A program made the translations under genes and the position numbers. From an uncultured Verrucomicrobiae bacterium (lineage in GTDB: Bacteria > Verrucomicrobiota > Verrucomicrobiia > Limisphaerales > UBA11358), in the NCBI GenBank assembly GCA_963754775.1, contig CAVWHM010000023.1, positions 94,481-158,480 on the forward strand: DNA of 64,000 nt. The letters are read 5' to 3'. How positions within the stretch are numbered: position 1 is the stretch's first letter; each line of letters starts with the position of its first letter. The notes below the pieces were generated by a model. It had not been told where the DNA came from. It ran no database searches and saw nothing but the letters and a program-made list of their open reading frames with translations. This document shows, in pieces, positions 14,067-31,653 of the stretch.

Positions 14067-14075
14067 ATAAAAAAC

Positions 14076-15300: not shown

Positions 15301-16478
15301 AAAAAAATTGCCTTCAACTGATTAAGATTTGCCTGCCGGTTCTCCTTTTTGCCGCCGTGATTGCGCGCGGCCAGAACGAGATCACCATCGAACAAAACAT
15401 TACCGTCATGGGGATGACGAAACCAATTCCGGTTTCACTGGAAGGGTTCACCGGTGAAACTTTGGACGTTTTGAAATTCGATCTTTACGTGCAGGGTTTC
15501 AGCTTTGTCGGTCCCGACGCCGCGCAATACCTCATCAGCGGCAGCAACGCCGGCAACGTGCAGGGCCGGGTTACGGATCGCTTTGCCAAAAGTTCGCTGC
15601 TCGCGCGCAGTTATACCGGCGCGTCGTTGCGGCGGGAGGCGCACGCGTTCGCCGATGACATCGTACTGGCCATCACCGGCAAAAAAGGCATCGCGCAGAC
15701 GAAAATCGCGTTCAAGGACGAAGCCCCCGACGGCGCCGGCGAAATTTACGTTGCGGATTTCGACGGCCACAATCCGCAGGCCGTCACCCATGACGGCGAC
15801 ATCGTGGCCGCGCCCGCGTGGGTGCCCGGCCGGCTCGCGGTTTATTACACCTCCTACAAGCTCGGCAACCCGGACATTTTTTATCACGACCTCACCACCG
15901 GTCAGCGCCGCGCCATCGCGCGCTATTCCGGCTTGAACTCCAGCGCCGCCGTTTCGCCGGACGGCACGAAGGTGGCGATGATCCTGAGCAAAGGAGGCAG
16001 CCCGAATGTTTATGTCTGCAACGCCGACGGCACGGGCCTGAAAAAATTGACGGCCACGAGCGAAGATTCGTCGCCGTGCTGGTCGCCGGACGGACAGTGG
16101 ATTTGTTTCGCAACCAAGATCAACGCGCGGCGGTTGCTGGCCAAAGTGCCGGCGGGCGGCGGCGGGGTCCAAACCCTCAGAACCGTCGGCGTCTCGAATC
16201 CGACCGAACCCGACTGGTCGCCGGACGGCAAATGGATCGCGTTCACGTCGCAGATGGGCGAATTCGACGTGTGTGTTGTGCCCGCCAGCGGCGGCACGGT
16301 CACGGTCCTGGTGCCGGGCGAAGATCCGTCATGGGCGCCGAACTCCCGGACACTGATTTATGCGCGGCGCACGACTTCCTACCGGTATGTGCTGTCTTTG
16401 CTTGACGCCCCGACGAAACAAGTCAAAGATATCGCCCGAGTTTCGGGAAGTGATTCCCAACCCGCTTGGGCGAGGTGA
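15297..16478 (+). CDS. tolB: TolB-like periplasmic beta-propeller protein
   Basis: 393-aa intact ORF with a signal peptide and repeated PD40-type motifs (SPDGTKVAM, WSPDGQWICF, WSPDGKWIAF). Confidence 0.8.
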   Translation: MKKNCLQLIKICLPVLLFAAVIARGQNEITIEQNITVMGMTKPIPVSLEGFTGETLDVLKFDLYVQGFSFVGPDAAQYLISGSNAGNVQGRVTDRFAKSSLLARSYTGASLRREAHAFADDIVLAITGKKGIAQTKIAFKDEAPDGAGEIYVADFDGHNPQAVTHDGDIVAAPAWVPGRLAVYYTSYKLGNPDIFYHDLTTGQRRAIARYSGLNSSAAVSPDGTKVAMILSKGGSPNVYVCNADGTGLKKLTATSEDSSPCWSPDGQWICFATKINARRLLAKVPAGGGGVQTLRTVGVSNPTEPDWSPDGKWIAFTSQMGEFDVCVVPASGGTVTVLVPGEDPSWAPNSRTLIYARRTTSYRYVLSLLDAPTKQVKDIARVSGSDSQPAWAR

Positions 16479-16527
16479 TTTTGAATTTTTTAAGAACTTT
16501 TAACTGAAATTTAACCAAAGCTAAAAT

Positions 16528-17118
16528 ATGAAAACGACAAAACTGATTTTCCCACTGGTGCTCGCGCTGGCCGCCACTCTCGCCACGACGGGCTGCAAAC
16601 ACAAACCGGTTGGCGTTACGCAACTGCCCGGGCAAAAACCAATGGTCGGCGAAAATAACAATCCCCCCACTTTGCCGAATACTCAGCCCATCAATCCGGA
16701 AAACCAGCCTGGCGCTACGCCGCTGGCCAATCCGGACGTGTTCGACAACATGCTGGCCGACCGCGCAGCACTCGCGGCGTACACAATTCATTTCGCCTAT
16801 GACAGCTCCGCAATCCGGAGCAGCGAGAAGGCGAACCTGGCCTCGGTCGCCCAGCAATTGAGCGGCGATGCCAGCACCAAGCTGCTCATCGAGGGCAATT
16901 GCGACGAACGCGGCACCGAGGAATACAACCGGTCGCTCGGCGAACGCCGTGCGCTGGCGGCGCGCGAAGCGCTGGCCAAACTGGGCGTTGACCCGATGCG
17001 CGTCGAGACCCGGAGTTTCGGCAAGGACAAGCCGGTGGATCCAGGCCACGACGAATCCGGCTGGGCCAAGAACCGGCGCGACGATTTCGTGCTCCTGCAT
17101 CCGAAGCCAGGCTCGTAA
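16528..17118 (+). CDS. pal: peptidoglycan-associated lipoprotein (OmpA-family)
   Basis: Lipobox LATTGC. OmpA-like domain: IHFAYDSSAI...LIEGNCDERGTEEYNRSLGERRA...NRRDDFVLL. Confidence 0.85.
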   Translation: MKTTKLIFPLVLALAATLATTGCKHKPVGVTQLPGQKPMVGENNNPPTLPNTQPINPENQPGATPLANPDVFDNMLADRAALAAYTIHFAYDSSAIRSSEKANLASVAQQLSGDASTKLLIEGNCDERGTEEYNRSLGERRALAAREALAKLGVDPMRVETRSFGKDKPVDPGHDESGWAKNRRDDFVLLHPKPGS

Positions 17119-17127
17119 TCTTAATTT

Positions 17128-17195
17128 GGGAGGGACGCCGTGCCGGCGTCCCTGATTTGCCGAAAAGTTTGGGACGGCGGCACGCCGTCCCTCCC
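17128..17195. repeat. double GC-rich hairpin element after pal (same GGGACGCC family); possible terminator
   Basis: gggagGGACGCCGtgcCGGCGTCCc (17128-17152) and gGGACGGCGgcaCGCCGTCCctccc (17171-17195). Each is a hairpin, and the two are near reverse complements of each other. Confidence 0.6.
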
Positions 17196-17258
17196 GGCTT
17201 TTTGCCGCTTTACTATTTCCTGGAACGGGCGTAGCCTTGGTGAGGCTCGACAAAACTT

Positions 17259-17531
17259 ATGAATGCCATGTTAGCAGCTTTTCTCGGCGGATGGGATTGG
17301 GTCATCGTGGCTTTGGCCGTTCTGCTTTTGTTTGGCGCCAAACGCATCCCCGATTTGGCCCGCAGTCTGGGCCAGAGCATCAAGGAATTCAAGAAAGGGG
17401 CGCGCGAAGTGACGGATGAAATTCAAAACGCAGCGAATGAGCCGCCCGCCCCGCCGAACAAATCCGTGAAGAATGGCCAGTCGCAGCCCGGCCAAGCCGC
17501 TTCGCAGCCTTCCAACCCGCCGAAGTCCTGA
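17259..17531 (+). CDS. tatA: twin-arginine translocase TatA/E-family protein
   Basis: GGWDWVIVALAVLLLFGAKRIPDLARSLGQSIKEFKKG is the canonical TatA N-terminus. Confidence 0.85.
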   Translation: MNAMLAAFLGGWDWVIVALAVLLLFGAKRIPDLARSLGQSIKEFKKGAREVTDEIQNAANEPPAPPNKSVKNGQSQPGQAASQPSNPPKS

Positions 17532-17551
17532 ACGGCGGAGAATTTCTCGGC

Positions 17552-18559
17552 ATGGCCGGCGAAAATGAACCGGAACGTCCCGACAGGGCCGAAGGCGGCC
17601 CGGTCAAAACCTTTCTCGAACACCTCGAAGATTTCCGCTGGGTGCTCATCAAGAGCATCGTCGCGCTGTTTTTGGGAATGTTGATCTGTCTGTTTGCGGC
17701 CAACGACGTCGTCCGCATCGTCAAGTGGCCGTTGACGCATGCTTGGATTCATTACTCCGGCACCAACCAGATCGTCACCGTGAGCTTCGGCACGAACCGT
17801 CTCGGCAATTTTCCGCTCACGCCCGAACAGCAGCAATCGCTGGACCTCGGCACGAACCGTTTTGTGGCCGTTGAAGTCGAGCCGCTGGTTATTGGCACCA
17901 ACCGCGTGCTCGGCTGGCGGGTCAATCACGACCCGAATGTGGCCGACGACGCGCAGCGGGCCAGAATTGACTTGATCAACCTCAGTCCGGCGGGCGGATT
18001 CGTCGTCGCGTTCCAGGTCGCCCTGTATGGCGGCGCAGTGCTGGCGTCGCCGTTTATATTTTACTTCGTCGTTGCCTTCGCCTTCCCGGCGCTGAAATTG
18101 CGCGAAAGAAAATACGTTTATCGCGGCCTGGCCATCGGCATCGGTCTGTTCCTTGCGGGCGTGGCCTTTTGTTATTTCGCCCTGATGCCGGTGGCGCTGT
18201 CGGCGGCGCAACTGTATTCACAATGGCTTGGTTTCGGCGCGTTTCAATGGCGGGCGGAGGATTACATCAGCTTTGTCTGCAAGTTCATGCTCGGCATGGG
18301 GCTGGGCTTCGAACTGCCGGTGGTGATTTTGACGCTGGTGAAAATCGGCGTGCTCAGCTACCGCACGTTATCGAAGGCGCGGCGTTACATGATCATCATC
18401 AATTTGATACTCGGCGCGGTGCTCACCACGCCCGAACCGATCACGATGCTGGTCATGTTCGTGCCGTTGCAATTGCTTTACGAAATCACCGTCTGGATTG
18501 CGTGGTATTGGGACCGGAAAGAAAGAAAACGGGCTTTACATCCGGCGGATTCCGCGTAA
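17552..18559 (+). CDS. tatC: twin-arginine translocase subunit TatC with an enlarged first periplasmic loop
   Basis: FLEHLEDFRWVLIKSIVALFLG start plus 6 TM-like segments. At 335 aa it is longer than the roughly 250 aa I recall as typical, because of an insert of about 80 aa with four GTN(R/Q) repeats. Confidence 0.8.
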   Translation: MAGENEPERPDRAEGGPVKTFLEHLEDFRWVLIKSIVALFLGMLICLFAANDVVRIVKWPLTHAWIHYSGTNQIVTVSFGTNRLGNFPLTPEQQQSLDLGTNRFVAVEVEPLVIGTNRVLGWRVNHDPNVADDAQRARIDLINLSPAGGFVVAFQVALYGGAVLASPFIFYFVVAFAFPALKLRERKYVYRGLAIGIGLFLAGVAFCYFALMPVALSAAQLYSQWLGFGAFQWRAEDYISFVCKFMLGMGLGFELPVVILTLVKIGVLSYRTLSKARRYMIIINLILGAVLTTPEPITMLVMFVPLQLLYEITVWIAWYWDRKERKRALHPADSA

Positions 18560-18592
18560 ACTGTGTTTGTAAAAATAACAAATCGAGAATTT

Positions 18593-18805
18593 ATGCATAA
18601 AGCAATGCCCTTTCTCACTGTAGCCGCCCTTGCCACCTTGTTTGTGTCCGGTTGCGCCACACACGAACCAAAACTCGGAAGCGGCATAAAAAACTATTAC
18701 ATAGACACGGACACCTACTCCGGTTTCAGCAACGGCGAAGTCAACATCGTCGACGTTATATCGACCTTCGGTTTTGGTAGCCGGTTCAAAGTATTCGACA
18801 ATTGA
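18593..18805 (+). CDS. small hypothetical lipoprotein (low GC)
   Basis: MHKAMPFLTVAALATLFVSGC is a signal peptide with lipobox. No family recognised. Confidence 0.45.
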   Translation: MHKAMPFLTVAALATLFVSGCATHEPKLGSGIKNYYIDTDTYSGFSNGEVNIVDVISTFGFGSRFKVFDN

Positions 18806-18874
18806 CCGTGCCTGAATCCGCTTTCATCAACGCGCCAACCATCATCCGTTGGCGCGTTTTTCTTTTGTGAGACC

Positions 18875-19747
18875 ATGGCGCTCGAAAAGAAATCCCCCTG
18901 CAAGGTCAATTTGCTGCTGAATATCCTGGGCAAACGGCACGACGGTTTTCACGAACTTGAAACCGTTATGCAACCGGTCAACCTTTTTGACGAAATCCGT
19001 TTCGAACGCGGTGGAAATGGAATTCAGCTCACCTGCGATGAACCCGCCTTGCCGGTTGACTCCAAAAATCTCGTTCATCGGGCGGCGGATGCGTTCCGCC
19101 GGGCGGTGAAAATTTCGGACGGTATCCGCATCCGGCTGGGGAAAAAAATTCCGTTGGCCGCCGGACTCGGCGGGGGCAGCGGCAACGCCGCCACGACCTT
19201 GCTCGCGTTGAACGAACTGTTCGACCAACCGCTCTCAGCCGCAATCCTGACCAAACTGGCCGCGTCGCTCGGCTCGGACGTCCCGTTCTTCCTGCAAAAC
19301 CGGCCAGCGCTTGCCACCGGGCGGGGCGAGAAAATCCAGCCCTTGGATTTCTTTCCAGCGCTGCACGGCAAGGCCCTCCTGCTGATTCATCCCGGCTTCG
19401 GCATCTCGACGGTTTGGGCATATCAAGGCCTCGCGCGGTTTCCGGCGGCATTGAACGGCCGGCGTGGCCGCGCGGAAAAATTGGTTTCCTTGCTTCAGGC
19501 CGGGGATTTGCGGGCCGGCGGCGGCGAATTTTACAATGCCCTCGAGGCGCCTGCGTTCGAAAAATATCCCGTGCTCGCGCTGTTTCAGGAGTTCCTGCGC
19601 GCGAGCGGCGCGCTCGCCGCGCTCATGTCCGGCAGCGGTTCGACGACGTTTGCCATCGCCGAAAACCGGACAGCCGCCGAATCGTTGGTGGAAAAATTCA
19701 AATCAAAATTCGGGCAGAACTGCTGGACCGCGGTGGTGCCAATTTGA
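18875..19747 (+). CDS. ispE: 4-diphosphocytidyl-2-C-methyl-D-erythritol kinase
   Basis: KVNLLLNILGKRHDGFHELETVM and KKIPLAAGLGGGSGNAATTLLALN (GHMP kinase motif). Confidence 0.9.
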   Translation: MALEKKSPCKVNLLLNILGKRHDGFHELETVMQPVNLFDEIRFERGGNGIQLTCDEPALPVDSKNLVHRAADAFRRAVKISDGIRIRLGKKIPLAAGLGGGSGNAATTLLALNELFDQPLSAAILTKLAASLGSDVPFFLQNRPALATGRGEKIQPLDFFPALHGKALLLIHPGFGISTVWAYQGLARFPAALNGRRGRAEKLVSLLQAGDLRAGGGEFYNALEAPAFEKYPVLALFQEFLRASGALAALMSGSGSTTFAIAENRTAAESLVEKFKSKFGQNCWTAVVPI

Positions 19748-19753
19748 AGGCAG

Positions 19754-19828
19754 GGTCGCCTCGCCGAGGCGACCGGTGCAAATTTTTTCACTTCCCACCG
19801 ACGGACGCCGCGGCGCGGCGTCCCTACC
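19754..19828. repeat. two GC-rich hairpins between convergent ispE and murJ (second is a GGTAGGGACGC-family member)
   Basis: GGTCGCCTCgccGAGGCGACC at 19754-19773. GGACGCCGCGgcgCGGCGTCCctacc at 19803-19828. Confidence 0.6.
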
Positions 19829-21404
19829 TTGACTTTCTAAATCGCGCGCGCGCAAACTCCACCATCTCTTTTGCCGCCGGAATCTTGAACGCCAGCGCGG
19901 CCAGCCAGTACACCAGACCCGCAATTCCCGCCGGCACGAACACTGCCCCGATTTTCAATGCCACATTGCCGTGGCCCAGTGAGTTTTCCCACAACCGCCA
20001 GCTTTCATACGCGATGAGCCCGGCAATGATCGTCAGGGGCAGCAGCCACAAAAGATTCTGGCGTGGCAATTCCAGTTCGAGCTTGCCGAGCTTCTTCCGC
20101 AAGGCGAACAGCAGCAGTCCCACGTTGAAACACGAGGTCGCGGTGTTGGCGATACCGGGGCCGCCTTCGCGCAACGGGCCAAGCAGTACCGTGGCGGCGG
20201 CAAGATTGACGGCGAGGCAGACCAGGCTGATTTTCATCGGCGTCTTCGTATCACCGAGCGCATAAAAGGCGCGCGCCAGAATGTTCACGGTCGAAAACAT
20301 CACGAGTCCCGGCGCGAGACAAGTGAGCGCGTAGGCGACGCGGAGGGTGGATGCGCTGGTGAACCTGCCGTGTTCAAACAGCAGCCGCACGATCGGCTCG
20401 GCCAGCGTCACGAGCAACGCCGAGGCGATGAGATTCAAAAAAAACAGCGTGGACAGGCCGTGCCGCAGGGTGGCACGAAACTCGGGATAATTCCCGTCCG
20501 TCGCCAGTCCGGCGAGCGTCGGCAGCAGATAGGTCGCCAGCGAAATGCCGAAAATTCCCTGCGGGAGCTCCATGAGGCGCACCGCGCCGTTAAACGAAGA
20601 AACGATGCCGGTGCCCATGAAAAACGCGATCAATTGCACGAGCGCGACGTTGATTTGGAATGCTGCCACGCCGATCGTTCCGGGAATCATCTGGCGCACG
20701 ACGCGTTGAACGGTGGCATCGCGCCAGGGCGAAACCCAGCGGTAGCGGAAACCGTCGCGCCAGAGCGTGGGCAGTTGAAAGGCCGCCTGCGCCACGCCCG
20801 CCGCCAGCACGCCATACGCGAGCGCGAAAATTTGCACCGGCAATTTTTGTTCCTTCGGAAGCCCCACGCCGAATTTCGGCGCGAGCAGATAAACAGACGC
20901 AATCATCACGACATTGAGCATGGTGGCGCCCATGGCCGGGATGAAAAAATGGCCGCGCGCGTTGAGCATCCCCATCATCGCCGCCGCCAGACAGACGAGC
21001 AGCATGTAGGGGAACATCACGCGCAGCAGCCGCAGCATCAGCTCCCAGCGGGCGTCAAATTGATGCACAGCCAGGGCGATGGATATGCCGGTCATGACCA
21101 GCGCGATGACGACGCTCGCGGAAACAATGAGGCCGGAGATGACGGCATTGGCCGCGCGCCACATTTCCTTTTCGCCGTGGATTTTTTCCTTTTCCTTGAA
21201 AACCGGGATGAAGGCCGCCGTCAGCGCGCCTTCGCCGAGCAGACGGCGAAAAAGATTGGGGATCGTGAACGCATACTGAAACGCGTCGTTGACCCAGCCG
21301 ACGTTCATGAACGCCATGTAGGCCATCTCGCGCACCATGCCGAGCAGGCGGCTGACGAGAGTGGCGGCGGCCATGGCACCGGACGACTTGAGCATCTGCG
21401 ACAT
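19824..21404 (-). CDS. murJ: lipid II flippase MurJ/MviN
   Basis: SRLLGMVREMAYMAFMNVGWVNDAFQYAFTIPNLFRRLLGEGALTAAFIPVF plus 14 TM-like segments. I place the start at MSQML (21404), because the first 9 ORF codons are heptamer-repeat sequence. Confidence 0.85.
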   Translation of the reverse strand: MSQMLKSSGAMAAATLVSRLLGMVREMAYMAFMNVGWVNDAFQYAFTIPNLFRRLLGEGALTAAFIPVFKEKEKIHGEKEMWRAANAVISGLIVSASVVIALVMTGISIALAVHQFDARWELMLRLLRVMFPYMLLVCLAAAMMGMLNARGHFFIPAMGATMLNVVMIASVYLLAPKFGVGLPKEQKLPVQIFALAYGVLAAGVAQAAFQLPTLWRDGFRYRWVSPWRDATVQRVVRQMIPGTIGVAAFQINVALVQLIAFFMGTGIVSSFNGAVRLMELPQGIFGISLATYLLPTLAGLATDGNYPEFRATLRHGLSTLFFLNLIASALLVTLAEPIVRLLFEHGRFTSASTLRVAYALTCLAPGLVMFSTVNILARAFYALGDTKTPMKISLVCLAVNLAAATVLLGPLREGGPGIANTATSCFNVGLLLFALRKKLGKLELELPRQNLLWLLPLTIIAGLIAYESWRLWENSLGHGNVALKIGAVFVPAGIAGLVYWLAALAFKIPAAKEMVEFARARFRKSR

Positions 21405-21416
21405 CGCGCCAAGCTT

Positions 21417-21450
21417 AAGTTCAAAGTTCAAAGTTCAAAGTTCAAAGTTT
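21417..21450. repeat. tandem heptamer (AAGTTCA) x4.5 just upstream of murJ
   Basis: aagttca repeated at 21417, 21424, 21431 and 21438, with a partial copy at 21445. Confidence 0.8.
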
Positions 21451-21574
21451 TCCTATCGTGCCTCGTCGTCGTCCTGCATCCTCGTCATTTCGAATCGAGA
21501 AGGACCGAGGACGAGGAGGATTCAAACTCCAATTGGCAGTTGGCAATCGGAATCTGGCGATTTAATCTGCTCGC

Positions 21575-22972
21575 GTGAGCATTTATGAAGAACTGCAATG
21601 GCGTGACTTAATTGCCGATTGCACCAGTTCTAGAACGTAGACATTTTAGTCGAAAGTGGAAAAGTTTCGGACAAGGCTCGCCGGGCTTTGGCACCGAAAA
21701 GGAATCACGCTTTACTGCGGGTTCGACCCCACCGCCGACAGCCTGCACGTCGGCAACCTTGTGCCGCTGCTGGCACTGCGACGGTTTCAATTGCTCGGCC
21801 ATCATCCCATCGCCGTGGCCGGCGGTGCGACCGGCATGGTGGGTGATCCCAGCGGCAAGACACAGGAGCGCCAGTTGCTGACCAAGGAAATACTGGATCA
21901 CAACATCGCCAGCGTGAAAGTCCAGCTGGCGAAGCTGCTCGATTTTGAGACGAAACAAAATCCGGCGCGGCTGGTGGACAACGCCTCGTGGACGGCCAAC
22001 GTTTCGTTCCTCGATTTTCTGCGGGACATCGGCAAGCATTTTTCCGTCAACCAGATGGTCGCCAAGGAAAGTGTCCGCGCACGGATGGAGGACCGCGAGG
22101 TGGGCATCAGCTACACCGAATTCAGCTACATGCTGCTCCAGGCATTCGATTTCATGGTGTTGTGCCGCGACCACAACTGCGAATTGCAGATCGGTGGCAG
22201 CGACCAGTGGGGCAATATCACCGCCGGAATTGACCTCATCCGGAAAAAATTGGGCAAGACAGCCTACGGCCTGACGCTCCCGCTTATCACCAACGCCGAC
22301 GGCACAAAATTCGGCAAGACCGAAGCCGGCGCCATCTGGCTCGATCCGAAGAAAACCAGCGTTTACAAATTTTACCAGTTCTGGATCAACACCGATGACC
22401 GCGATGTCATCCGTTACCTGAAATATTTCACGTTTTTGTCGCAAGAAGAAATCGAGTCGCTGGAAAAGCAGCACGCGGAAAATCCCGGGGCGCGGGAGGC
22501 GCACAAGGCCTTGGCCAAAGCTGTGACGGAGGTAGTCCATGGTCCGAAAGCCACGGTTGAAGCAGTCAAGGCGAGCGAAGCGTTGTTCGGTGGGAGCTTG
22601 GACGAGATTAGTGAACAGACGTTCAACGATATGATAGGTTTCTCCGATGCTATGATGAGTTCGATGTTTGGGGAACGACCCAAGAACACGCCTTGGCTGC
22701 CGATTAGAAAATCGAGATTTCAGGGGCAAGGAACGTTATTGACCGATTTGTTAGTTATCGGTGGCTTAAGCGCGTCAAAGAGTGACGCACGCAGAAAAAT
22801 TCAAGAGGGTGCCATTTACGTCAACAATTTCCGAGAAACCAATTTGCAACGTTCGATAACGTTGAACGAGCTAAAGTTCGGTAAAAACCTTCTTCTTCGG
22901 AAGGGTAAAAAGAACTATATCTGCCTCGTTGCTATTGAAGACATTAAATTCGTTCGAGACGATCAAGGATAG
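21575..22972 (+). CDS. tyrS: tyrosyl-tRNA synthetase; N-terminal 30 codons broken by about 2 frameshifts; last roughly 115 codons low-GC and apparently foreign
   Basis: GTG 21575 gives VSIYEELQWRDLIADCT. ORF 21656.. has ITLYCGFDPTADSLHVGNL (HIGH), GGATGMVGDPSG and KFGKTEAGAIWL (KMSKS-like). The S4 tail ...ARRKIQEGAIYVNN...LLLRKGKKNY has visibly lower GC from about 22615. Confidence 0.85.
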
Positions 22973-25290
22973 CAAAGGCAAAAAAAATTACATTGTCTTG
23001 ACGGCGAGGTAGCAGCCGACGTGAGTCGGCTCTGACTTTTCTGGCTGAAATAATGAGCGGACTCACGTCCGCTGCTACAAATTTGGACTGCGCGGACATA
23101 TCATCGCACACCAAATCAATAAACCAAAACCAGCACCGCCGCGTCTTGGGCAGATTTGACCACCTCCTCAAACTTCCGGTCAGCCGTCCCCGGCGCTTTG
23201 ATCTTGTTTGCCACATCCGGCACAGATTCAAGAAAGCCCAAAAGAAAACTGCTTTTGACGGCGTAGTTCACGTTTTCCGGCAACGCGCCACTCTCGGCCA
23301 GTGCCGCCCGCGCGCTCAACTTGGCCGACACGATGCCCACCACGTTGCCATGCTCATCCACCAGCGCGCCGCCCGAATTTCCCGGTTGCACAGGCACGCT
23401 GATTTGAAAATAGCGCGGGTCGTCCGACGCGCCGGACAGTGACGCGATTTCCCCTTTGGCCAACTTGGGCGCGAACCCTTGCAACCCGATGTCGGGAAAA
23501 CCGACCGTGGCCACTGTGCCGCCCAGCTTCACCGTGCGACTTGCTGCAATCGGCAACGGAGAAAATTTCCCTTCCGCTTTGAGCAACGCGATGTCATTGG
23601 CCGCGTCCACGCTTACCACTTTGGCGGCGATCATTCCTGCGCTAGTGACCAAACGAATCTGCACGGCATCTTTAACAACATGGTTGTTCGTAATCAAATA
23701 ACCATCGTCCGTGATGAAAAATCCCGTGCCGGTGGCCGATGGCTGGGAATTCGCAATGTTGTTGCCAGAAACAGATGAACCCGATTCCGGCGTTTTGCGT
23801 GGTTTAAACTCACGCGCCAATTGCTGCGCTTCAGCAATTTGATCTCGTGTCATAAATAAATTTTCCGCGTCGTTAAGTAACCTTTTTGCATTTTCATTAC
23901 CTTGCGCTGCGGAAAGGTTTAACCATTTGCACGCTTCAACATAGTCCTTAACCACTCCGTCGCCTTTCAAATAGCGCGCTCCAAGAACCATTTGAGCGTT
24001 TGCGTTTCCTTGTTCTGCGGCCTTACGAAACCATTTCAGGGCTTCGATATCATCTTTAGTCACGCCATCGCCTCTGGTATAACAAACTCCAAGGTCGTTT
24101 TGGGCTGAAGCATCGCCTTGTTCCGCAGCTTTGCGCCACCATATTGCGGCTTCCACATAATCCTTTTCACGCTGTCGCCGTCGGCATAGCAGAAGCCTAG
24201 AATGTATTGCGCTTTGGTATAATTCTGATCGGCGGCTTTGCGATACCACTTCACGGCTTCCGTATAATTTGTCTCTACGCCTTCACCCTTGTAATAACAT
24301 ACACCAAGAGCTTATTCAGCTTTGGCGTTTCCCTGTTCAGCAGCCTTGCGAAACCATTTGGCGGCTTCAGAATAATCTTGATCACGCCCATTCCACGATA
24401 AAAAAGTGTGCCGAGGAATATTACGCTATTACATCGCCATTTACTGGTTAGAGGCATTGCAAGCTGCAAAATGTTCGCGATCCTGTTCTTTTTGGTGGGA
24501 AGACAATAGAACCGCGCATGCAATAAGCACGGAAGTGTCCAAGTTAACGAATTCGCTTTCATATTCACAAATTAGTAGGCTTCAAACAGCCTATGTTGCT
24601 CGGGTTTGTTGGTGTGGAAAACAAAGAATCCAAAACATCCATATAAAATCAACATCCAAACGCCCTCATCGCCGGTTTCATCAACGTGACGCCAACATTC
24701 AAATACACATTGCCCACGCTTCAAATACGGTTCCCGCATTATCTTCGTCGTAATTCTCAGTGGCTCAACAGAAGACTGCTGCCGAACGTAAACGGCTTCA
24801 AAAGTTGATTGTAGAAATCAAAGTCAGGATGCAGCGTAAATAGCAGACCTTTTGTAATTCTAATCATCCCATCTTTGAATTCCTGATCGTCAATCCCTGC
24901 TCGGATTAGTTCTGGTCGTTCCGACACAGCCTGCATTGTAACCGCCAGCTTCTCCACAAACTGCATTTGGCGCTCTCTTGCGAAAGTGCTACCGATGACC
25001 TTCTCGTCCAAAATTCTTTGCCCAACTTCATTTCGGTCAAACGGCATTGAAGCAACAATTCTAAGCCGCTCATCAAATCCAGAGTGTTTATTATTACACT
25101 CAAAACAACAAGGCACCTTAATCAAATCGTCTGGTCTTGGTTTTGGGAAAAGGCCCATTGGCGGTATGTGGTCTAGAGTAAGTTCATCAGATGGGTGTTT
25201 CTCGCCTGGTTTGAGATCGTATTCTCTCACCGGGACACCACACAAATAACAGTTTTGTTTCGGATTATTCAATATCTTACCGCGAGAATA
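22615..25290. mobile_element. low-GC insertion inside the 3' end of tyrS (substitute tyrS tail, Sel1-protease gene, HNH gene); boundaries approximate
   Basis: An abrupt GC drop at about 22615 returns to high GC at about 25290, where the displaced native tyrS tail begins. No integrase was found inside it. Confidence 0.5.
23116..24568 (-). pseudogene. secreted Sel1-repeat protein fused to a trypsin-like (S1/DegP-type) serine protease domain; 2 frameshifts plus an in-frame TAA
   Basis: About 5 Sel1 units (AAKWFRKAAEQGNAKAE, AVKWYRKAADQNYTKAQ, AAIWWRKAAEQGDASAQ, ALKWFRKAAEQGNANAQ...). The protease domain follows: GTGFFITDDGYLITNNHVV...NDIALLK...GNSGGALV. TAA at 24312-24314. Frame breaks near 24385 and 24170. 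Confidence 0.7.
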
Positions 25291-25302
25291 GTTGTTTCCC
25301 AC
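24757..25302 (-). CDS. HNH-family endonuclease-like protein
   Basis: CYLCGVP...LTLDHIPP...VPCCFECNNKHSG (CxxC ... DH ... CxxCN). The start is uncertain (GTG 25302 or ATG 25323). The ORF-track N-terminal extension is antisense to the tyrS remnant. Confidence 0.6.
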   Translation of the reverse strand: MGNNYSRGKILNNPKQNCYLCGVPVREYDLKPGEKHPSDELTLDHIPPMGLFPKPRPDDLIKVPCCFECNNKHSGFDERLRIVASMPFDRNEVGQRILDEKVIGSTFARERQMQFVEKLAVTMQAVSERPELIRAGIDDQEFKDGMIRITKGLLFTLHPDFDFYNQLLKPFTFGSSLLLSH

Positions 25303-25495
25303 CGACCGGCAAGTCTGGCGCATCCGCCCGTCCAAAGGCCAGGCACGAAAAGACATCGAAGGCGGCGGCGTGAACATCAACAACGTCCGCGAATCAAACT
25401 TCCAACGCGCGGTGACGGCGAGCGATTTGCTTTTTGGCCAGTATCTCCTGCTCCGCAAAGGCAAAAAAAATTACGTCGTCGTCAATGCGAAGTGA
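25290..25495 (+). pseudogene. tyrS: displaced native 3' end of tyrS (S4 domain fragment)
   Basis: High-GC fragment PSKGQARKDIEGGGVNINNVRESNFQRAVTASDLLFGQYLLLRKGKKNYVVVNAK*. By hand it aligns at about 27/51 identity with the current tyrS tail SKSDARRKIQEGAIYVNNFRETNLQRSITLNELKFGKNLLLRKGKKNYICL. It has no upstream catalytic domain. Confidence 0.75.
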
Positions 25496-25592
25496 TTGGC
25501 TGGCTACAGAATTTTGCGCCCCGGCTCGCCGATACTGGCAACGGTGCAAACTGCTTCGGCTGTCCTCGCACGACACTGCGTGTGGGTGTTCC

Positions 25593-27005
25593 TCAAATGA
25601 ACTTTTCCGGGTGCATTGACCGTAATGCCTCTGTGGCTTTCTCAACGGTGTCTTTGGCTTCGCCTAGACTCATGCCCGGCTGACTGGAACGGAGTTCTTG
25701 GATGGCGTCACTCGTTTGACCTTCATAAATCAACTCAGCAACCTCCTCATCAATGCCGAGAGCTTCTTCCTCTTCCGATTCGAGATCATTATCGCCAATA
25801 TCATCAGACGTCGCGTCGGCTCTTTCGAGGTCGAGATCAATAAATTTTTCATCCAGGTCAGCCATATCATACCGTTGCGTGTCGTAATTCGGCACCAGCC
25901 GGCTCAACAAAATATCCCGGATTCTTGATTGACGTTGTTTGGCTAGTTCTGCCCCCGGTTCGACTTTAGGATTCAATGCGGAACGCCATTGTTCGTCTGA
26001 TGGACGAGCCGACGGAGGCAAAAAGGCTCGTTCAATTGTTACACATTCCATCCGCAGAAACATCAGCATATTGAACATGTTTAATTCAAGAAATTTCCCC
26101 CCGTTCTCAGACGCTAGATAGGAATCAACCAAACGGGTTTTAATTTTCTTCCAATCCTCGGGATGTTTTTTTGACCAAATCTCAAAGGCTTCCGTTTCTC
26201 GATCCATTTCAGATTTCAAAACCGAAAGTTTGGCGGAAAGATCGGAAATTTTCGTCGACCGAGCGGCATCTGACATTTTTTTCGATTTTGTGAAGAAGAA
26301 TGCGGATACGACCAGACTCCCCAATAAAACCATTGCTTTTATGAAATTCTTGATTAGTTTCGCTTCGGCATCTGCTTTGGCCTGCTTCTCGGCTTGAGCT
26401 TCCTTAGCTTGAGCTTCCTTAGCTTGAGCTTCCCTAGCTTGAGCTTCGGCCTTTGCTTGAGCCTCGGCCTTTGCTTGGGCTTCGGCCTTTGCTTGGGCTT
26501 CGGCCTTTGCTTGGGCTTCGGCCTTTGCTTTTGCTTGAGCATCCATTTTTGCCTGAAAATCAGCTTTTGCCTTCAAGATTTGTTCAGTTGGCCGTTCATT
26601 TGCGAGCCGGGTTGCATAGTCCATCGCGTTAGTATCACCTTGCAAAGCCGCCTGCACATACCACTTATAGGCTTCCAAATCATCTCTTACTACGCCATAG
26701 CCACGTTCATAGCAGAACCCCATATAAAATTGTGCTCCTAAATAATTCTGTTCAGCAGCCATGCGAAACCACTTTACCGCTTCCACCTCGTCATTCACCA
26801 CGCCTTTGCCAAAAAGGTAGCAGAGACCTAGATTGTATTGAGCCTCTGCAGAATTGTTTGTGTTGGCCATGTTATACCAATGTACATACTGGGATCTGTC
26901 ATCGGCCTGAGCGTGAGGCTCTTCAGTTTGAGCCTGAGCGGTTATGCCAACACAAAGAATCGCCCGGAAGACTAGAATTCCAAATAATGCTCTTGTTACT
27001 TTCAT
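25593..27005 (-). CDS. secreted/membrane Sel1-repeat protein with (KAEAQA)n coiled-coil repeat, one TM segment, and an acidic C-terminal region ending in an L7/L12-C-like helix motif
   Basis: 470-aa intact ORF, low GC. Signal peptide, then 2-3 Sel1 units (AVKWFRMAAEQNYLGAQ, AYKWYVQAALQGDTNA), then the tandem KAEAQA block, then TM LGSLVVSAFFF. C-terminus: ...IYEGQTSDAIQELRSSQPGMSLGEAKDTVEKA. Confidence 0.55.
   Translation of the reverse strand: MKVTRALFGILVFRAILCVGITAQAQTEEPHAQADDRSQYVHWYNMANTNNSAEAQYNLGLCYLFGKGVVNDEVEAVKWFRMAAEQNYLGAQFYMGFCYERGYGVVRDDLEAYKWYVQAALQGDTNAMDYATRLANERPTEQILKAKADFQAKMDAQAKAKAEAQAKAEAQAKAEAQAKAEAQAKAEAQAREAQAKEAQAKEAQAEKQAKADAEAKLIKNFIKAMVLLGSLVVSAFFFTKSKKMSDAARSTKISDLSAKLSVLKSEMDRETEAFEIWSKKHPEDWKKIKTRLVDSYLASENGGKFLELNMFNMLMFLRMECVTIERAFLPPSARPSDEQWRSALNPKVEPGAELAKQRQSRIRDILLSRLVPNYDTQRYDMADLDEKFIDLDLERADATSDDIGDNDLESEEEEALGIDEEVAELIYEGQTSDAIQELRSSQPGMSLGEAKDTVEKATEALRSMHPEKFI
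26395..26545. repeat. coding tandem repeat (18-bp units) inside 25593..27005
   Basis: gcttgagcttccttagct x3, then gcttgSgcYtcggcctttgctt x4-5. Translated on the minus strand these give AKAEAQ and EAQAK repeats. Confidence 0.85.
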
Positions 27006-27012
27006 TTATTCC

Positions 27013-27665
27013 TCAACTAAAAAATATTTTTACACAAATATAAACCCAAAAAACGAAAAGCCCAACCACAACCAACGCCAAAAACCCGTTCAGTGAGCCT
27101 TTGACTTCTTCCAACTCTTTATTGGCCTTCTTGTATTCAACAGTCGCTTCCTGCAATCTTCGCCTAGGATTCTTTCCCTCAATCATGAATCTCTTTACAT
27201 CAGGGTCAGTTGCAAAAAAATTCCCGGCGAACTCAAAGAACTTGAAAACTTTGAGAATGCTTTTGAAGCGTAAATCGTTTTTTTTGCCTGCGTATCTTTT
27301 CTCGACCAGCGGCAACAGTTGCTCGATTAAATACTGCGCCTTTTCTTCTTCCTTTAACAGCGGGAGTGTCGTTAAAACCGTCTGTCGAAAATTAGTTATC
27401 CGTTGTTCTTCGGCCATTTGCTCTTGGCGCGCCGCCATTTCGAGTTGTTGGATTTCCAACAAGCGCTGATGTCGAGCCGTGGCTTCTGCTGCGGCACTCG
27501 CTTCGCGTCGCATCTTTTCAACCGCTTCAGCCGTCTGTGCTATGTTAACCGCGCTCGCCACCGCTGCGGCTGCGGCTACTCTTTGGGCGAATAGTTGCTT
27601 CTTCTGCAGTGCCACTTCTTCTTGCCTTCGTTCTTCTTGCGCTGTTTTTCGACGTGTTCATTCAT
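27013..27665 (-). CDS. hypothetical coiled-coil protein with C-terminal TM anchor (low GC)
   Basis: ORF 27013..27615 (ALQKKQLFAQRV...EIQQLEMAARQEQMAEEQ... then the tail LALVVVGLFVFWVYICVKIFF). An ATG at 27665 directly follows the upstream TGA (ttaTGAATGaat) but needs one frameshift to join. GTG 27615 is the alternative start. Confidence 0.45.
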
Positions 27666-28140
27666 AAGCCATGATCGGGTGATTTTGTTCCTCGTGTAGC
27701 TACTCTTCCACCAGTTCGAGACTGATTGTGTTGATTCTCCAAGAGCTTCATGGTTTGCCTTTCGGTGAGCTTCTTTATGCTTCCCCGTGCTGTAAGCTTC
27801 TTGACGAGACAGAAGTCTTGGATTTTAGCCAGCACTAGGCATCGACCACCAGGGGCATCCCTTGTTTTATATTTAACTTCGCACAACCCAACATACCCCT
27901 CGTTAATTTGGTAACAAAAGACGTGGTCTCGCTTCCTACTTCATCAAATAGTGCCTTACCACGCCCCTTATTGAAACCGCGTGCATATGCGTCAAAAAGT
28001 TGAAAAGGTTCTGGCATCGAGAGAAACGTCCGGAATATTCTGCTAGAAAGTATTTCATCCTTGCCTTCCATTTTGGCATTCCAACGGATTGCCCAGTAAT
28101 TTTTTGGTTTCATTTTTTGGCGAGAGTTCTTGTTGTTCAT
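27662..28140 (-). CDS. hypothetical protein (two ORF fragments, one frameshift near 27885), first gene of a low-GC three-gene operon
   Basis: ORF 27835..28140 (MNNKNSRQKMKPKNYWAIRWNAKMEG...FVTKL) continues as INEGYVGLCEVKYKTRDAPGGRCLVLAKIQDF... in ORF 27662..27886. No family recognised. Confidence 0.4.
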
Positions 28141-28156
28141 TTAAATTCGTTGGTTT

Positions 28157-29311
28157 TTATTCCAATTCTCCGCGGGCTTTGGCTTCCTCCCGCGCGCGGC
28201 GGACGCTTTCTTCATACAAACGGTCATATTTGACTTCCTGTGGGTTGGCGTCCCCTTGCCGGGGCAGGGAGTTGATATGCGGGAACTGGCCGTCGAAGGC
28301 CGGGTCAATCGCCAGAATCCGTTTTGCCGGCGGCGGATGGGTGGACAAAAAATCGAACCACGGGTCGTAAGCGGAATTGACGAAATACAGATGACTGGCG
28401 GTTTCCGCGTAAGGCGTGTCGAGCCGGCCGCCCTTGAAAAGCCCGCCAATTTTTTTGAATGCACCGGCGATGCCCGCCGGATTGCGGGTGAACTGGACTG
28501 CCGCCGCATCGGCCAGCCATTCGCGCTCCCGGCAAATCAGGCTCTTGATCAATCGGACGGAGGGCGCGGTGATGCCCCCGACGATTAAAAATAAAACGCC
28601 AATCGGCGCGGTCGGCAGAAAAACCGGCTTGGTTCCCGGGTCAAAAATGGATTCGCCGATTTCCGGGGCGCGGGTCGTCCCATGCACCAAAATGCGACCG
28701 ACAATCGTCGGCCAGAAAAGGCCGTGCGCCAGCGCCATCAACTTCATGTTCAGCCGCGTGTCCCCGTTCACCACGTGGCTGAATTCATGCGCGATGATGC
28801 CCTGCAATTCGTCACGGTTCAGCAATTTCAGCGCGCCGAACGTGACGCCGATGGCCACGTCATCGCGCGCATTGCCCGCGGCGAAGGCGTTGATGCCGCG
28901 CTCGCAGTCGAGCACGTAAACTTCCGGCACCGGCACCCCGGATGCGACGGCCATTTCCTCGACGACATCACGCAATCGTTTTTCGTCGAGGTTGGCGGAG
29001 GTTTCTTCCAATTTTCGTCCGCCGAGCAGTTCCGCGACCGCCGGGCCGCCGCCAGAGAGCAGGTGCATTTTATAAAGACAGCCGAGCGCGGTGGAAAACA
29101 AAGTGCCGGCCGCGACCCAGAAGGCGAGACGCGGATCCCAGATAAATTGAAAAAAAGTTGTGCTGGTTGCCAGCGCCGGCGAAAAAAATCGGATGGGCAA
29201 GGCCAGAATCAGATACGTCAGGACCACAAACGCGAACACCGCCAGTCCGAACAAGTACAGGAGCAGGCGCGTTCGCCTTTTGGCGTGGGCTTCCTGGTCA
29301 AAAAAATCCAT
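28157..29311 (-). CDS. M48-family zinc metallopeptidase (HtpX-like)
   Basis: MDFFDQEAHAKRRTRLLLYLFGLAVFAFVV start (29311), HEFSHVVNGD (HExxH), TM segments. The 82 codons upstream in ORF 28157..29557 are repeat-element sequence. Confidence 0.8.
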   Translation of the reverse strand: MDFFDQEAHAKRRTRLLLYLFGLAVFAFVVLTYLILALPIRFFSPALATSTTFFQFIWDPRLAFWVAAGTLFSTALGCLYKMHLLSGGGPAVAELLGGRKLEETSANLDEKRLRDVVEEMAVASGVPVPEVYVLDCERGINAFAAGNARDDVAIGVTFGALKLLNRDELQGIIAHEFSHVVNGDTRLNMKLMALAHGLFWPTIVGRILVHGTTRAPEIGESIFDPGTKPVFLPTAPIGVLFLIVGGITAPSVRLIKSLICREREWLADAAAVQFTRNPAGIAGAFKKIGGLFKGGRLDTPYAETASHLYFVNSAYDPWFDFLSTHPPPAKRILAIDPAFDGQFPHINSLPRQGDANPQEVKYDRLYEESVRRAREEAKARGELE

Positions 29312-29458
29312 GGGTTGCTCCCCGCTTGTAGCAAAAGGCGCTGCCGGGGAAAACACTTTTTGTTCCACGAACGCAAAATCGCGCCGGCGTGACGGTAAAA
29401 CAGGCCTGCCTGAAACTGCTTTGCGAAGGCATAGCACGGCCAAGCCACAACCAAATCT

Positions 29459-29559
29459 TTTTGGACTGCGGCGGGAAGCGAAGCGCCACGCCGCTTTGGA
29501 AGTTCTGTCCGCAGTCGAAAAGCGGTGTCGCCGCTGTGCTCTGCCACCGCAGTCCAAAA
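29459..29559. repeat. 101-bp MITE/REP-like element with 13-bp perfect terminal inverted repeats
   Basis: ttttggactgcgg (29459-29471) is the reverse complement of ccgcagtccaaaa (29547-29559). The interior has further short GC palindromes (gcggtgtcgccgc). Confidence 0.7.
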
Positions 29560-29578
29560 TCTTCGCAACCAGGCGGCG

Positions 29579-31135
29579 CTAACGAACCTCCGACCGCGCC
29601 TCGAGGAATTTTTTTAATTCCATCGCCGCCTTGCCGCCAAACCCGGGCACTTCGGCGATTTGTTCCAGCGTCGCGGTTCGCAATCGTTGTACCGAGCCGA
29701 ATTTTTTCAGCAACGCCTGCTTGCGCCGTTCGCCGATGCCGGGGAATTCGTCCAGCACGCTTTCCGAAATCCGCTTGATGCGGAGCTGCGCGTTGTAGGA
29801 GTTGGCCACGCGATGACATTCGTCGCGAATCCGCTGGAGCAATTTAACCGCCGGATGATCGAGGCCGGGCCGCAGCGGTTTGCTTTCGCGAGGCTGGTAA
29901 ATTTCCTCGAACTCCTTCGCCAGCCCGATGACTGGAATTTTTTCGAGGCCGAGCTTTTTCAATTCCGCGCACGCGGCATTCAACTGGCCTTTGCCGCCGT
30001 CAATCAGAATCAGGTCAGGCAATGTAGCGCAGGCGTCCCGCCTGCTTCCCGCCCAAGTTTCCCCACCCGGCTTTGGCAGGCGGGACGCCTGCGCTACATT
30101 TACTTCGCGCAAAAACCTTGAATACCGTCGCTTTACAACCTCCGCCATGCTCGCAAAGTCATCCTGCCCCTCGACGGTTTTGATTTTAAACCGGCGATAA
30201 TTCACGCGGTCGGGCCGGCCGTTTTTGAAGCTGACCAGCGACGCCACGGCGAACGTGCCGCTGATGTTGGAAATGTCGAAGCCTTCAATCCTTTGCGGCG
30301 GGTTTGGCAAATCGAGCACTCTTGCCAGTTCGGCCAAATCGTTTTCCGGGTTGATGGAAAAAGGCAGCGTGTAAGGCACGCGCTCGAATTTCCGTTCCTT
30401 CTTCGTTGTTTCCCCCAGGTCGCGGAGGAGGTCGCGCAAGTCGGCGGCTGTTTCGAAATCCTGCGCGCCGGCGGCCTTTTTCATCCGGGCTTCGAGCTGT
30501 TCCTTCATTTCGTGGCACTGGCCTTCGAGGAAATCACACGCGGCGCCGACCTGTTCCAGATATTGTTTGCGAGTGACGTTGCCAATGCACGGCGCGGTGC
30601 AGTGTTTCAGATGCGCGTAGAGACAATGTTTGTAGTCGCTTTCACCCGGTGTGAATGCGCGGCAGCCGCGCAGATTGAATTGCCGCCGGACGAGCGCCAG
30701 CGTGTTGCGCAGCGCGCCCGAATTCGAGAACGGCCCGAAGTAACGCGCGCCGTCGTCCTTCCGGAGCCGGGTGAACGTGAAATTCGGGATCGGGTCGTTT
30801 AGATTCACCTTGAGCATCAGAAATCGCTTGTCGTCGCGGAAACTGACGTTGTAACGCGGATGAAATTCCTTGATGAGCTTGCCTTCGAGCAGGAACGCCT
30901 CCGGTTCGCTGCGGACGACGTGAAAATCGAAATCGTAAATCGCCTCGACGAGCGCATTGAACTTCAAGTCCCAGCCCAGGCGGCGCGACGGATGGAAATA
31001 CTGGCTGACGCGTTTGCGCAGGTCGCGCGCCTTGCCGACGTAGATGACCGTGCCGAACCGGTCGCGCATGAGATAGACGCCCGGCTTGTGCGGCAGCGTG
31101 CTGACTTTTTTGCGGATGGCTTCGGTCGCAGGCAC
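29579..31135 (-). CDS. uvrC: excinuclease ABC subunit C, carrying an 81-nt in-frame palindromic insert
   Basis: GIY-YIG (PGVYLMRDRFGTVIYVGKARDLRKRVSQY), a UVR-like helix pair, the PDLILIDGGKGQL endonuclease region and a C-terminal (HhH)2 (FPGIGERRKQALLKKFGS...VPGFGGKAA). Confidence 0.85.
   Translation of the reverse strand: MPATEAIRKKVSTLPHKPGVYLMRDRFGTVIYVGKARDLRKRVSQYFHPSRRLGWDLKFNALVEAIYDFDFHVVRSEPEAFLLEGKLIKEFHPRYNVSFRDDKRFLMLKVNLNDPIPNFTFTRLRKDDGARYFGPFSNSGALRNTLALVRRQFNLRGCRAFTPGESDYKHCLYAHLKHCTAPCIGNVTRKQYLEQVGAACDFLEGQCHEMKEQLEARMKKAAGAQDFETAADLRDLLRDLGETTKKERKFERVPYTLPFSINPENDLAELARVLDLPNPPQRIEGFDISNISGTFAVASLVSFKNGRPDRVNYRRFKIKTVEGQDDFASMAEVVKRRYSRFLREVNVAQASRLPKPGGETWAGSRRDACATLPDLILIDGGKGQLNAACAELKKLGLEKIPVIGLAKEFEEIYQPRESKPLRPGLDHPAVKLLQRIRDECHRVANSYNAQLRIKRISESVLDEFPGIGERRKQALLKKFGSVQRLRTATLEQIAEVPGFGGKAAMELKKFLEARSEVR
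30021..30100. repeat. perfect 25-bp inverted repeat with 30-nt spacer inside uvrC
   Basis: aatgtagcgcaggcgtcccgcctgc (30021-30045) is the exact reverse complement of gcaggcgggacgcctgcgctacatt (30076-30100). It translates as NVAQASRLPKPGGETWAGSRRDACATL directly before the conserved PDLILIDGG. Confidence 0.85.
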
Positions 31136-31248
31136 ACCTGAATTTCATGCAAAGCCGGCAAGGCGCAAAGGAATTTTAACCGGAAATTTTCGCTTGCGCG
31201 CCGAAAAGAATCCGCGTATTGAGCAGCAAACCCAACGAAAGGAAACCT

Positions 31249-31653
31249 ATGGCAGACACCCAAAATCCACCGCCCGCCCAACCATCGCAACCCGCAACCC
31301 TCACGCCGCCTCCGGCGACCGGCGGCGAAGACAAAACGGTCGCAATCATAGCCTACCTCACGTTGATTGGGTTCATTGTGGCCATCGTCGTTCACATGAA
31401 CAAAAAGACGAAGCTGGGCGCGTTTCATCTCCGCCAGATGCTCGGTTTTTTACTGACCGGCATCGCCGTCGTGTTTTGTGAAATCATTCTCATCTTTATT
31501 CCCATCCTCGGTTGGCTGTGCATTGTAGCTCTATGGCTTTCGATGCTGGTGCTTTGGATTCTGGGACTGGTCGCGGCCATCAACGGCCAGATGAAACCCA
31601 TGCCGGTGGTCGGGCCGCTCTACCAGAAATGGTTCGGCACCACCTTTGACTGA
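31249..31653 (+). CDS. small 3-4 TM membrane protein (DUF4870-like)
   Basis: Pro-rich N-terminus, then AIIAYLTLIGFIVAIVVH...HLRQMLGFLL... hydrophobic segments. Family assignment is from memory and uncertain. Confidence 0.5.
   Translation: MADTQNPPPAQPSQPATLTPPPATGGEDKTVAIIAYLTLIGFIVAIVVHMNKKTKLGAFHLRQMLGFLLTGIAVVFCEIILIFIPILGWLCIVALWLSMLVLWILGLVAAINGQMKPMPVVGPLYQKWFGTTFD

Follow-up and report, generated by a model that had tools for sequence, protein, structure and literature searches.

How can the coding end of a normally essential gene be exchanged for a foreign one, while the old end is left stranded downstream of it? The question is raised by tyrS, the tyrosyl-tRNA synthetase gene, in a stretch of 64,000 nt from an uncultured Verrucomicrobiae bacterium (here called the window; contig CAVWHM010000023.1, positions 94,481-158,480 forward, assembly GCA_963754775.1). 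A preliminary description of this DNA had noted that the tyrS open reading frame (ORF) reads through to 22972 with a drop in GC near 22615, and that a high-GC fragment further on encodes a second TyrS S4 tail; it took the locus for the footprint of an element that integrates into the 3' end of an essential gene and brings a replacement coding end. A displaced gene 3' end together with a supplied substitute is the classic footprint of integrative elements. The comparisons reported here favour another reading, to which we give a probability of roughly 60%: the locus would be an island built by a homologous crossover in tyrS and a non-homologous join in the recipient tail, and not an integrase-type element, and the resulting allele would then spread and turn over by homologous recombination.

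An allele without the island exists in the same species. Among the contigs and loci compared with the window, which carry L-numbers, L096 is a 151-kb contig of the same species (97-99% DNA identity), which came to light because it encodes a 100-aa tail ORF with 98% identity to the stranded fragment. Its positions 1-9914 match window 12565-22506 at 96.8% identity, its tail (10134-10305) matches 25326-25497 at 96.5%, and positions 10301-18438 match 28151-36287 at 98.6%. The gene order in L096 is murJ, tyrS, the native high-GC tail, six bases, the M48 peptidase gene and uvrC; L001 likewise has murJ, tyrS and M48, and its tail abuts M48. In the window, 219 native bases (L096 9915-10133) have no counterpart, and 22507-25325 (2.8 kb) stand in their place. 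The DNA between the in-use and the stranded tail is an insertion polymorphism within one species, absent from L096 and from relatives such as L001, which bears out what the preliminary description had supposed. Furthermore, a contig of 5.75 kb assembled from another sample, L107, corresponds to window 22424-28156 (96.2% identity) and ends at both island boundaries; this would fit a coexistence of island-bearing and island-free strains, because assemblies tend to break at polymorphic boundaries.

The tyrS of L096 has a peculiarity of its own. A stretch at 9845-10060 (codons ~270-330) is divergent, AT-richer and frameshifted, and by eye about two thirds of the residues between 'AHKAL' and 'FNDMIG' are unlike those of the window. 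This stretch could be the scar of an earlier exchange, or partly sequencing error; the frameshifts in the gene are probably sequencing errors.

The tyrS locus of the window contains three gene ends in series, here called tails A, B and C in their order along the DNA (coordinates in Table 1). Tail C, the stranded one, lies within a 67-codon ORF (25292-25495) whose product covers positions 29-83 of the 83 in Pfam SYY_C-terminal (E=1.8e-16), a resemblance far beyond chance. The preliminary description was right in seeing a tyrS tail of ~67 codons at 25290-25495, but only ~55 of the codons (25328-25492) are derived from tyrS, the first 11-12 coming from an adjoining junction sequence, J50. The ORF product is 52.8% identical to residues 374-426 of the in-use protein, and the two tails are 60% identical in DNA, in agreement with the ~53% protein identity and the clearly different DNA given before. 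At the protein level, tail C shows 87% identity to the tails that L001 and L022 use, and besides its high DNA identity to the working tail of L096 it has the 'GQY' signature of L096 in common with it; in a dozen relatives the working TyrS tail has the ending ...CPSKGQARKDIEGGGVNINNVRESNFQRAVT..DLLFGKHLLLRKGKKNYVVVTAK. Judged by sequence, tail C is the native tyrS end, as had been proposed, because L096 and L001 carry the native tail abutting M48, and it does not belong to a separate, duplicated tyrS paralog.

Tail A is the end in use. Along 22600-23000 the GC content falls from 0.52-0.63 to 0.47, 0.43 and 0.38, and the low-GC block extends on to 28150. The in-use tail covers SYY_C-terminal positions 14-81 (E=2.9e-15), and it has an insertion within the linker and a 13-residue C-terminal extension. 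In protein it is ~50% identical to every native tail, and comparison of the in-use tail with the tails of relatives gave only 37-48% identity. The donor lineage of tail A was not identified by an exhaustive search of 1.84 billion representative proteins, in which the best match reached 50-56% identity, nor by a word-index search, which gave one weak match; exact look-ups of the window TyrS and of the 67-aa ORF matched no record. The insertion-free L096 and L001 carry a native-type tail, so a low-GC tail is not the normal tyrS end of these relatives. A foreign origin of the low-GC end in use is supported by this sequence evidence.

Between these two tails, the last codons of an earlier native-type tail, tail B, are preserved directly downstream of tail A. 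Over 39 nt the remnant is 82% identical to 25455-25493, with its first 20 nt exact (25455-25474), tblastn gives 81.8% over 11 aa, and the join of tail A with tail B duplicates the RKGKKNY codons. It is followed by terminator-like sites on both strands (23014-23031, plus; 23073-23056, minus), and the same layout of tail end, hairpins and then the 3' end of a protease gene is found in L098. This third tail, together with a second insertion and a patch at the 5' end of tyrS that are both considered below, adds layers that the preliminary description did not contain.

The joins between these pieces are of two kinds. On the left, alignment of tyrS, the means proposed earlier for locating the breakpoint, places the start of divergence from L096 at 22507, and the protein leaves the family consensus after 'FNDMIG', at ~22636; the segment between the two positions probably came from the donor, as the left part of the first import. 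This transition to foreign sequence is in frame and at a homologous tyrS position. Both right-hand joins are non-homologous: J50 meets tail C at the 'PSKGQ' codons, and tail A meets tail B out of frame.

J50 occurs once in the window, and the first minus-strand cargo gene begins at its left edge. It is also present in L009/L097, independent assemblies of another species with 82% tyrS DNA identity to the window. Between window and L009, 42 of 49 positions of J50 are identical (86%) as compared to 61.5% at four-fold sites of tyrS, an excess for which a binomial estimate gives p of about 2e-4. J50 and the tail behind it, 86.5% identical over 222 nt, are the sole segment common to the two islands. 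To the left the cargo differs; to the right the M48 proteins (466 aa in the window, 676 aa in L009) have different ends, and DNA similarity halts at the tyrS stop codon. Since J50 is more alike than four-fold sites, it is either constrained or was shared later than the host genomes diverged. An exact J50 19-mer had 15 loci among metagenome and viral contigs, all of them chance matches without tyrS context, and the stranded tail and J50, translated in antisense and used to look for the first-cargo genes of sister islands, gave no match.

The layout of tyrS, small cargo and stranded tail recurs in three further Verrucomicrobia lineages, which makes four islands in total; the nearest tyrS loci in the genome collection all belong to Verrucomicrobia subdivision 3 (Limisphaerales-like), the group in which the window is placed too. 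L009/L097 have a low-GC tyrS 3' part, cargo ORFs of 282 aa and 162 aa on the minus strand that are unrelated to the window cargo, J50, the stranded tail and M48. L098-L101 (19 JGI contigs) have tyrS, hairpins, fragments of a window-type protease gene, a RelB/PemK toxin-antitoxin pair, a tail stranded from 'ELLVH' onwards, and M48. In L102, tyrS is followed by a small ORF, a zeta-toxin-like P-loop protein (a weak match), another ORF and a tail stranded from 'DLDGAG' onwards, and the gene order differs, with an S1 protein upstream and PolX downstream in place of M48. The junction position therefore varies by family: before PSKGQ, before ELLVH or before DLDGAG. The foreign part of the in-use gene starts ~50 codons (window) to ~120 codons (L009) upstream of the position equivalent to the junction. 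Moreover, the islands are a mosaic of common pieces. Protease fragments are common to the window and L098, the in-use tail plus hairpins to L009 and L098 (73.6% over 326 nt), and the in-use tails of window and L009 are 57% identical in DNA. As a separate observation, the first cargo ORF beside J50 in L009 (12253-12741, minus) contains an RNLFVH motif that could be a HEPN-type Rx4H; Pfam and PADLOC gave no match for it.

A false duplicate tail, produced by a chimeric contig or by collapsed strains, has to be weighed against such a recurrence. Short tail-only ORFs do mislead at this gene. Many TyrS ORFs of 57-117 aa on contigs >100 kb looked like further cases, and in the four such contigs checked besides L096 (L103-L106) they were frameshift artefacts of error-prone long-read assemblies in which many genes are split; they are common on the long contigs of project ERZ250395xx. 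The architecture of the window, however, is found again in independent assemblies (L009/L097, L098-L101, and L107 for 22424-28156), and its two tails, at 60% DNA identity, are not mis-joined repeats. We regard an artefact as hardly credible.

An integrative element that has decayed or is non-autonomous, like the cis-mobilizable elements (CIMEs), would account for the displaced end in the classic way: an integrase would target the tyrS 3' end, the replacement tail would be carried in attP, the integrase would since have been lost or would act in trans, and J50 would be the element arm of attR. The low GC of the islands agrees with this, as does J50, which has changed less than neutral sites and adjoins the same tyrS position in the species of the window and in that of L009. 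Yet no integrase or recombinase domain was found among the island ORFs scanned of window, L009, L098 and L102, so that a recombinase is present in none of the four independent islands, and none was found among the called genes of the L096 flanks, which are collinear with the window; the absence of an integrase noted in the preliminary description is thereby extended. The boundaries (22506/22507 or ~22636 on the left, 25325/25326 on the right) share no repeat, and the direct repeat that had been looked for at ~22615 and ~25290 does not exist. The only long repeat, 22972-23010 with 25455-25493, consists of the homologous 3' ends of two tails. Furthermore, the loss of 219 native bases and the divergence of the in-use gene upstream of the stranded-tail start argue against conservative site-specific recombination, which yields neither. 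The junction positions differ among families, and the in-use tails of window and L009 are far less alike than J50. On this evidence an integrative element is unlikely.

A Campbell-type event makes predictions that some of the islands do resemble. A non-replicating circle with the cargo and a tyrS 3' fragment beginning at the junction would enter by one homologous crossover, which duplicates the tail, and could be excised again between the tails; later patches would blur the pattern. Under such a model the upstream tail should be complete and the downstream one truncated at its 5' end, the junction should be constant within a family, as J50 is, and the hybrid tails should be near-identical, as seen in L098 (~90%) and L102 (~86%). 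However, the in-use gene would have to be native as far as the position equivalent to the junction, whereas the foreign part starts well upstream of it in the window, and also in L009 and L098 by GC and by divergence from the family consensus. Native bases were lost as well, and a second event would have to rescue the model in each case, so that we consider it decidedly improbable.

The preliminary description had also raised an HNH-linked mechanism, prompted by the HNH endonuclease gene that it saw between the tails next to a Sel1-repeat serine protease gene. The protease call holds (Table 1). The HNH call is weak: Pfam HNH_5 matches at E=0.024 (15 bits, with a cut-off of 27.5), and the HNH endonuclease of PDB 4h9d, in an alignment that pairs the DH...N...CxxCN motif, at E=0.018; a structure predicted with AlphaFold2 (AF2) without an alignment was unusable, with a predicted local distance difference test (pLDDT) score of 34. 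In a homing scheme, the HNH protein would cut the native S4-tail sequence of a naive tyrS, repair would copy the island, and tails A and C would be immune. The HNH-like ORF adjoins the junction, and J50 joins the tail within its most conserved stretch, the PSKGQARKD codons. On the other hand, L009 shares J50 and has an unrelated ORF at that place, and L098 and L102 carry toxin-antitoxin genes instead. The HNH-like ORF was seen only in the island of the window; absent from L009/L097, L098 and L102, it is not a common driver, and homing by it is very improbable.

The island reading given at the outset would unfold in three steps. In a founding event, foreign DNA would bring the 3' part of a relative's tyrS, a terminator, the convergent protease gene, further cargo and J50. 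On its left this DNA would recombine homologously inside the conserved tyrS body; on its right the join would fall within the S4 tail of the recipient, at a non-homologous position. The outcome would be a 5'-truncated native tail C stranded beside M48, with the native bases between the two joins lost. A one-sided crossover with a non-homologous join leaves a stranded piece shorter than the replaced part, so that the later deletion invoked in the preliminary description is not needed. Selection would keep only events which bring a complete replacement tail, because tyrS is normally essential. In a second event, which from the anatomy of the locus would be of the same kind, the low-GC tail A would have overwritten most of the first imported tail, leaving the last 13 codons of tail B out of frame. 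Finally, the allele, bounded by the tyrS body on the left and by the stranded tail on the right, would possess two homology arms. RecA-type recombination through both could move it among strains and species, swap its cargo or delete it, without an enzyme of its own, and such arm-based recombination would explain why J50 and the tail are common to two species with different cargo and different M48 3' ends. Joins of this kind may not be rare: many short database ORFs consist of a TyrS tail behind an unrelated N-terminus, and in the metagenomic ORFs P0012, P0013 and P0015 a verrucomicrobial TyrS tail is fused in frame to the start of an unrelated gene (by eye DctP-like, alpha/beta-hydrolase-like and response-regulator (receiver)-like), with what looks like microhomology at the point of fusion, as in ...GTGKPLV|EILV behind the hydrolase-like N-terminus. 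These chimeric ORFs suggest that such joins are common around tyrS.

Several points weigh against this reading. No donor sequence was found, and hence the microhomology of 3-10 nt that is expected at illegitimate joins is not readable. The DNA of the in-use tail is 86-90% identical to that of the stranded tail, with long stretches of complete identity, in L098 and L102; this fits close donors or gene conversion between the copies, and import explains these tails no better than local duplication or gene conversion would. In L006 (10870-14000) the linker and tail of tyrS have been replaced by low-GC sequence (41% GC), no stranded tail is present, and a TPR gene and then an IS1595-family transposase (E=4e-33) follow, which means that other routes exist at this locus. 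L096 could represent a secondary loss, the direction of change being not provable in view of its divergent patch at 9845-10060. The occurrence of J50 at the same tyrS position in two species could reflect a site-specific process, or constraint on J50. The genuine instances recovered are four only, and spread by DNA uptake and flank recombination is something that we only infer.

Four known systems offer points of comparison; a literature search found no report of tyrS as an island target. Homology-facilitated illegitimate recombination, known from the naturally transformable Acinetobacter, Streptococcus pneumoniae and Pseudomonas stutzeri, combines a one-sided homologous anchor with a join at microhomology. 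The term is used in PMC6382021 and PMC8116780. Similarly, the window has one homologous join in a conserved gene and a non-homologous one shortly downstream, with a gain of a few kb of foreign DNA and a loss of a short recipient stretch, and no dedicated recombinase. That process, however, is known from laboratory transformation assays and not as a recurrent natural remodelling of an essential gene end, and the tyrS product seems to persist and to spread between species.

The minimal mobile elements of Neisseria are cassettes with conserved genes on either side, exchanged through transformation and homologous recombination. The tyrS site resembles them in holding different small cassettes or none, without mobility genes: it is empty in L096 and L001, and occupied by protease and HNH-like genes in the window, by the 282-aa and 162-aa ORFs in L009 and by RelB/PemK in L098, and the exchange would likewise proceed by flanking homology. 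In contrast to the Neisseria cassettes, the island has its left flank within an essential ORF and replaces the coding end of that ORF, a displaced piece of which forms the right flank; both arms can therefore come from one gene, even where the downstream neighbour is a different one, as in L102.

In Streptococcus thermophilus, ICESt1, ICESt3 and the related CIMEs are integrative elements which occupy the 3' end of fda and restore the gene, and some derivatives have no integrase. They share with the tyrS island the duplicated 3' end of a housekeeping gene, an in-use copy that comes from the incoming DNA and an old end at the far side of the island. They have identical att core repeats and no target loss, whereas the tyrS island has no boundary repeat, 219 lost bases and varying junctions. 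The rhs and cdiA toxin genes have displaced 'orphan' C-terminal modules downstream. There, as with the three tails of the window, successive gene ends accumulate behind the working one through recombination in the conserved upstream part, but tyrS encodes a housekeeping enzyme and not a polymorphic toxin, and its tails are not paired with immunity genes.

Table 1. Coordinates of tyrS, its three tails and the neighbouring features in the window
Feature	Position	Strand	Remarks
tyrS ORF in use	21656-22972	+	438 codons from GTG 21656; tRNA-synt_1b E=1e-84, SYY_C-terminal E=2.9e-15 (Pfam)
Native tyrS body	21704-22506	+	Nearly mismatch-free against L096 from 21704 to ~22440; blastn match ends at 22506
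tyrS segment differing from the L096 allele, family consensus kept	22507-22636	+	L096 alignment breaks at 22506; relatives matched up to 'FNDMIG'
Tail A, in-use linker and S4 domain	22637-22971	+	38-47% GC; own stop; S4 region matches SYY_C-terminal
Tail B remnant (KGKKNYIVLTAR*)	22972-23012	+	Final 13 codons and stop codon left from an earlier tyrS tail of native type; reading frame differs from that of tail A
Terminator-like hairpin, bidirectional	23009-23078		24-nt arms, 92% complementary; between tail B remnant and convergent protease gene
Sel1-repeat trypsin-like protease gene	23116-24600	-	Trypsin_2 E=1.2e-27, Sel1 E=4e-26; ORF 23116-24249 intact (377 codons)
HNH-like ORF	24757-25323	-	188 codons from ATG 25323; CxxC...DH...N...CxxCN motifs
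J50, non-tyrS junction	25280-25325		46 nt; directly left of tail C; common to L009/L097
Tail C, stranded native S4 tail	25326-25495	+	~55 codons plus stop, within 67-codon ORF 25292-25495
Second insertion	25498-28150	-	~2.65 kb, low GC; exactly between tyrS stop and M48 stop (six-base spacer in L096)
Sel1/coiled-coil protein	25593-27005	-	In second insertion; hydrophobic signal-like N-terminus
200-aa coiled-coil ORF	27013-27615	-	In second insertion; hydrophobic C-terminus
101-aa ORF	27835-28140	-	In second insertion
M48 peptidase gene, native convergent neighbour of tyrS	28157-29557	-	Peptidase_M48 E=4.3e-24

The remaining features of the locus are listed in Table 1. The Sel1-trypsin cargo gene is decaying: its Sel1 repeats run on upstream of the intact ORF (24250-24600, minus) through at least two frameshifts and one stop, and remnants of the same gene are held by L098. 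A scan for sigma-70 promoters gave a site count not above that of shuffled sequence. The tail of tyrS abuts M48 directly in L001, L096, L009 and L098, the place taken in the window by the second insertion. Its Sel1/coiled-coil gene contains tandem repeats of 18 nt and 15 nt (26351-26554), which are translated as (AKAEAQ)n and (AKEAQ)n. Tail C and the L096 tail differ at six places, four of them in the last five codons, adjoining this insertion. Further along the window, as the comparison with L096 brought out, 34928-35611 comprises two tandem units of ~342 nt that are ~85% identical, and 36609-40395 holds paralogous copies (~71-75%) of a gene pair for a 382-aa and a TPR protein.

The 5' end of tyrS is altered as well. 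The murJ-tyrS spacer and the first ~45 tyrS codons (21455-21703) differ from the L096 allele, and two in-frame TAG codons follow VSIYEELQWRDLIADCTSSRT in this region, so that the ORF can start only at GTG 21656. The TyrS protein of the window is without the first 17 conserved N-terminal residues (SILEELKWRGLLADCTD in L096); this tyrS may be impaired, or the genome may contain a second one in another place. The TyrS of L001 also has a different N-terminus. In other relatives the gap between murJ and tyrS is occupied, by a gene for an RHS-repeat protein (1427 aa; L104 1982-6811) or by a 469-aa ORF (L105 5494-6903), so that variability extends to the 5' side of tyrS.

The cargo, which includes a type II toxin-antitoxin pair, an HNH-like protein and a protease, may speculatively be selfish or defensive and favour retention of the island. 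A bolder idea, which we put forward tentatively and consider doubtful, is that such islands are selfish cassettes without a recombinase, each with a spare working end of an essential gene on one side and the truncated old end on the far side, in the manner of a natural ends-out gene-targeting construct. If this is true, they could enter the tyrS of any related genome by host recombination, whatever lies downstream (M48, or PolX in L102), and their toxin-antitoxin or nuclease cargo would discourage their loss.

For annotation, short ORFs named 'S4 domain protein' or 'partial tyrosine--tRNA ligase' downstream of a Verrucomicrobia tyrS should be read with care, since they can be displaced gene ends, or frameshift artefacts of long-read assemblies. 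Considered together with the empty site in the same species, the locus shows that horizontally acquired sequence can repeatedly take the place of the coding end of an aminoacyl-tRNA synthetase gene, one that is normally essential, without dedicated integration machinery, with up to three generations of gene ends remaining in series. If pieces of tyrS act as portable homology arms, small toxin-antitoxin or nuclease cassettes would have a simple route of spread among genomes without common gene order, which could help to explain integrase-free hotspots beside core genes.

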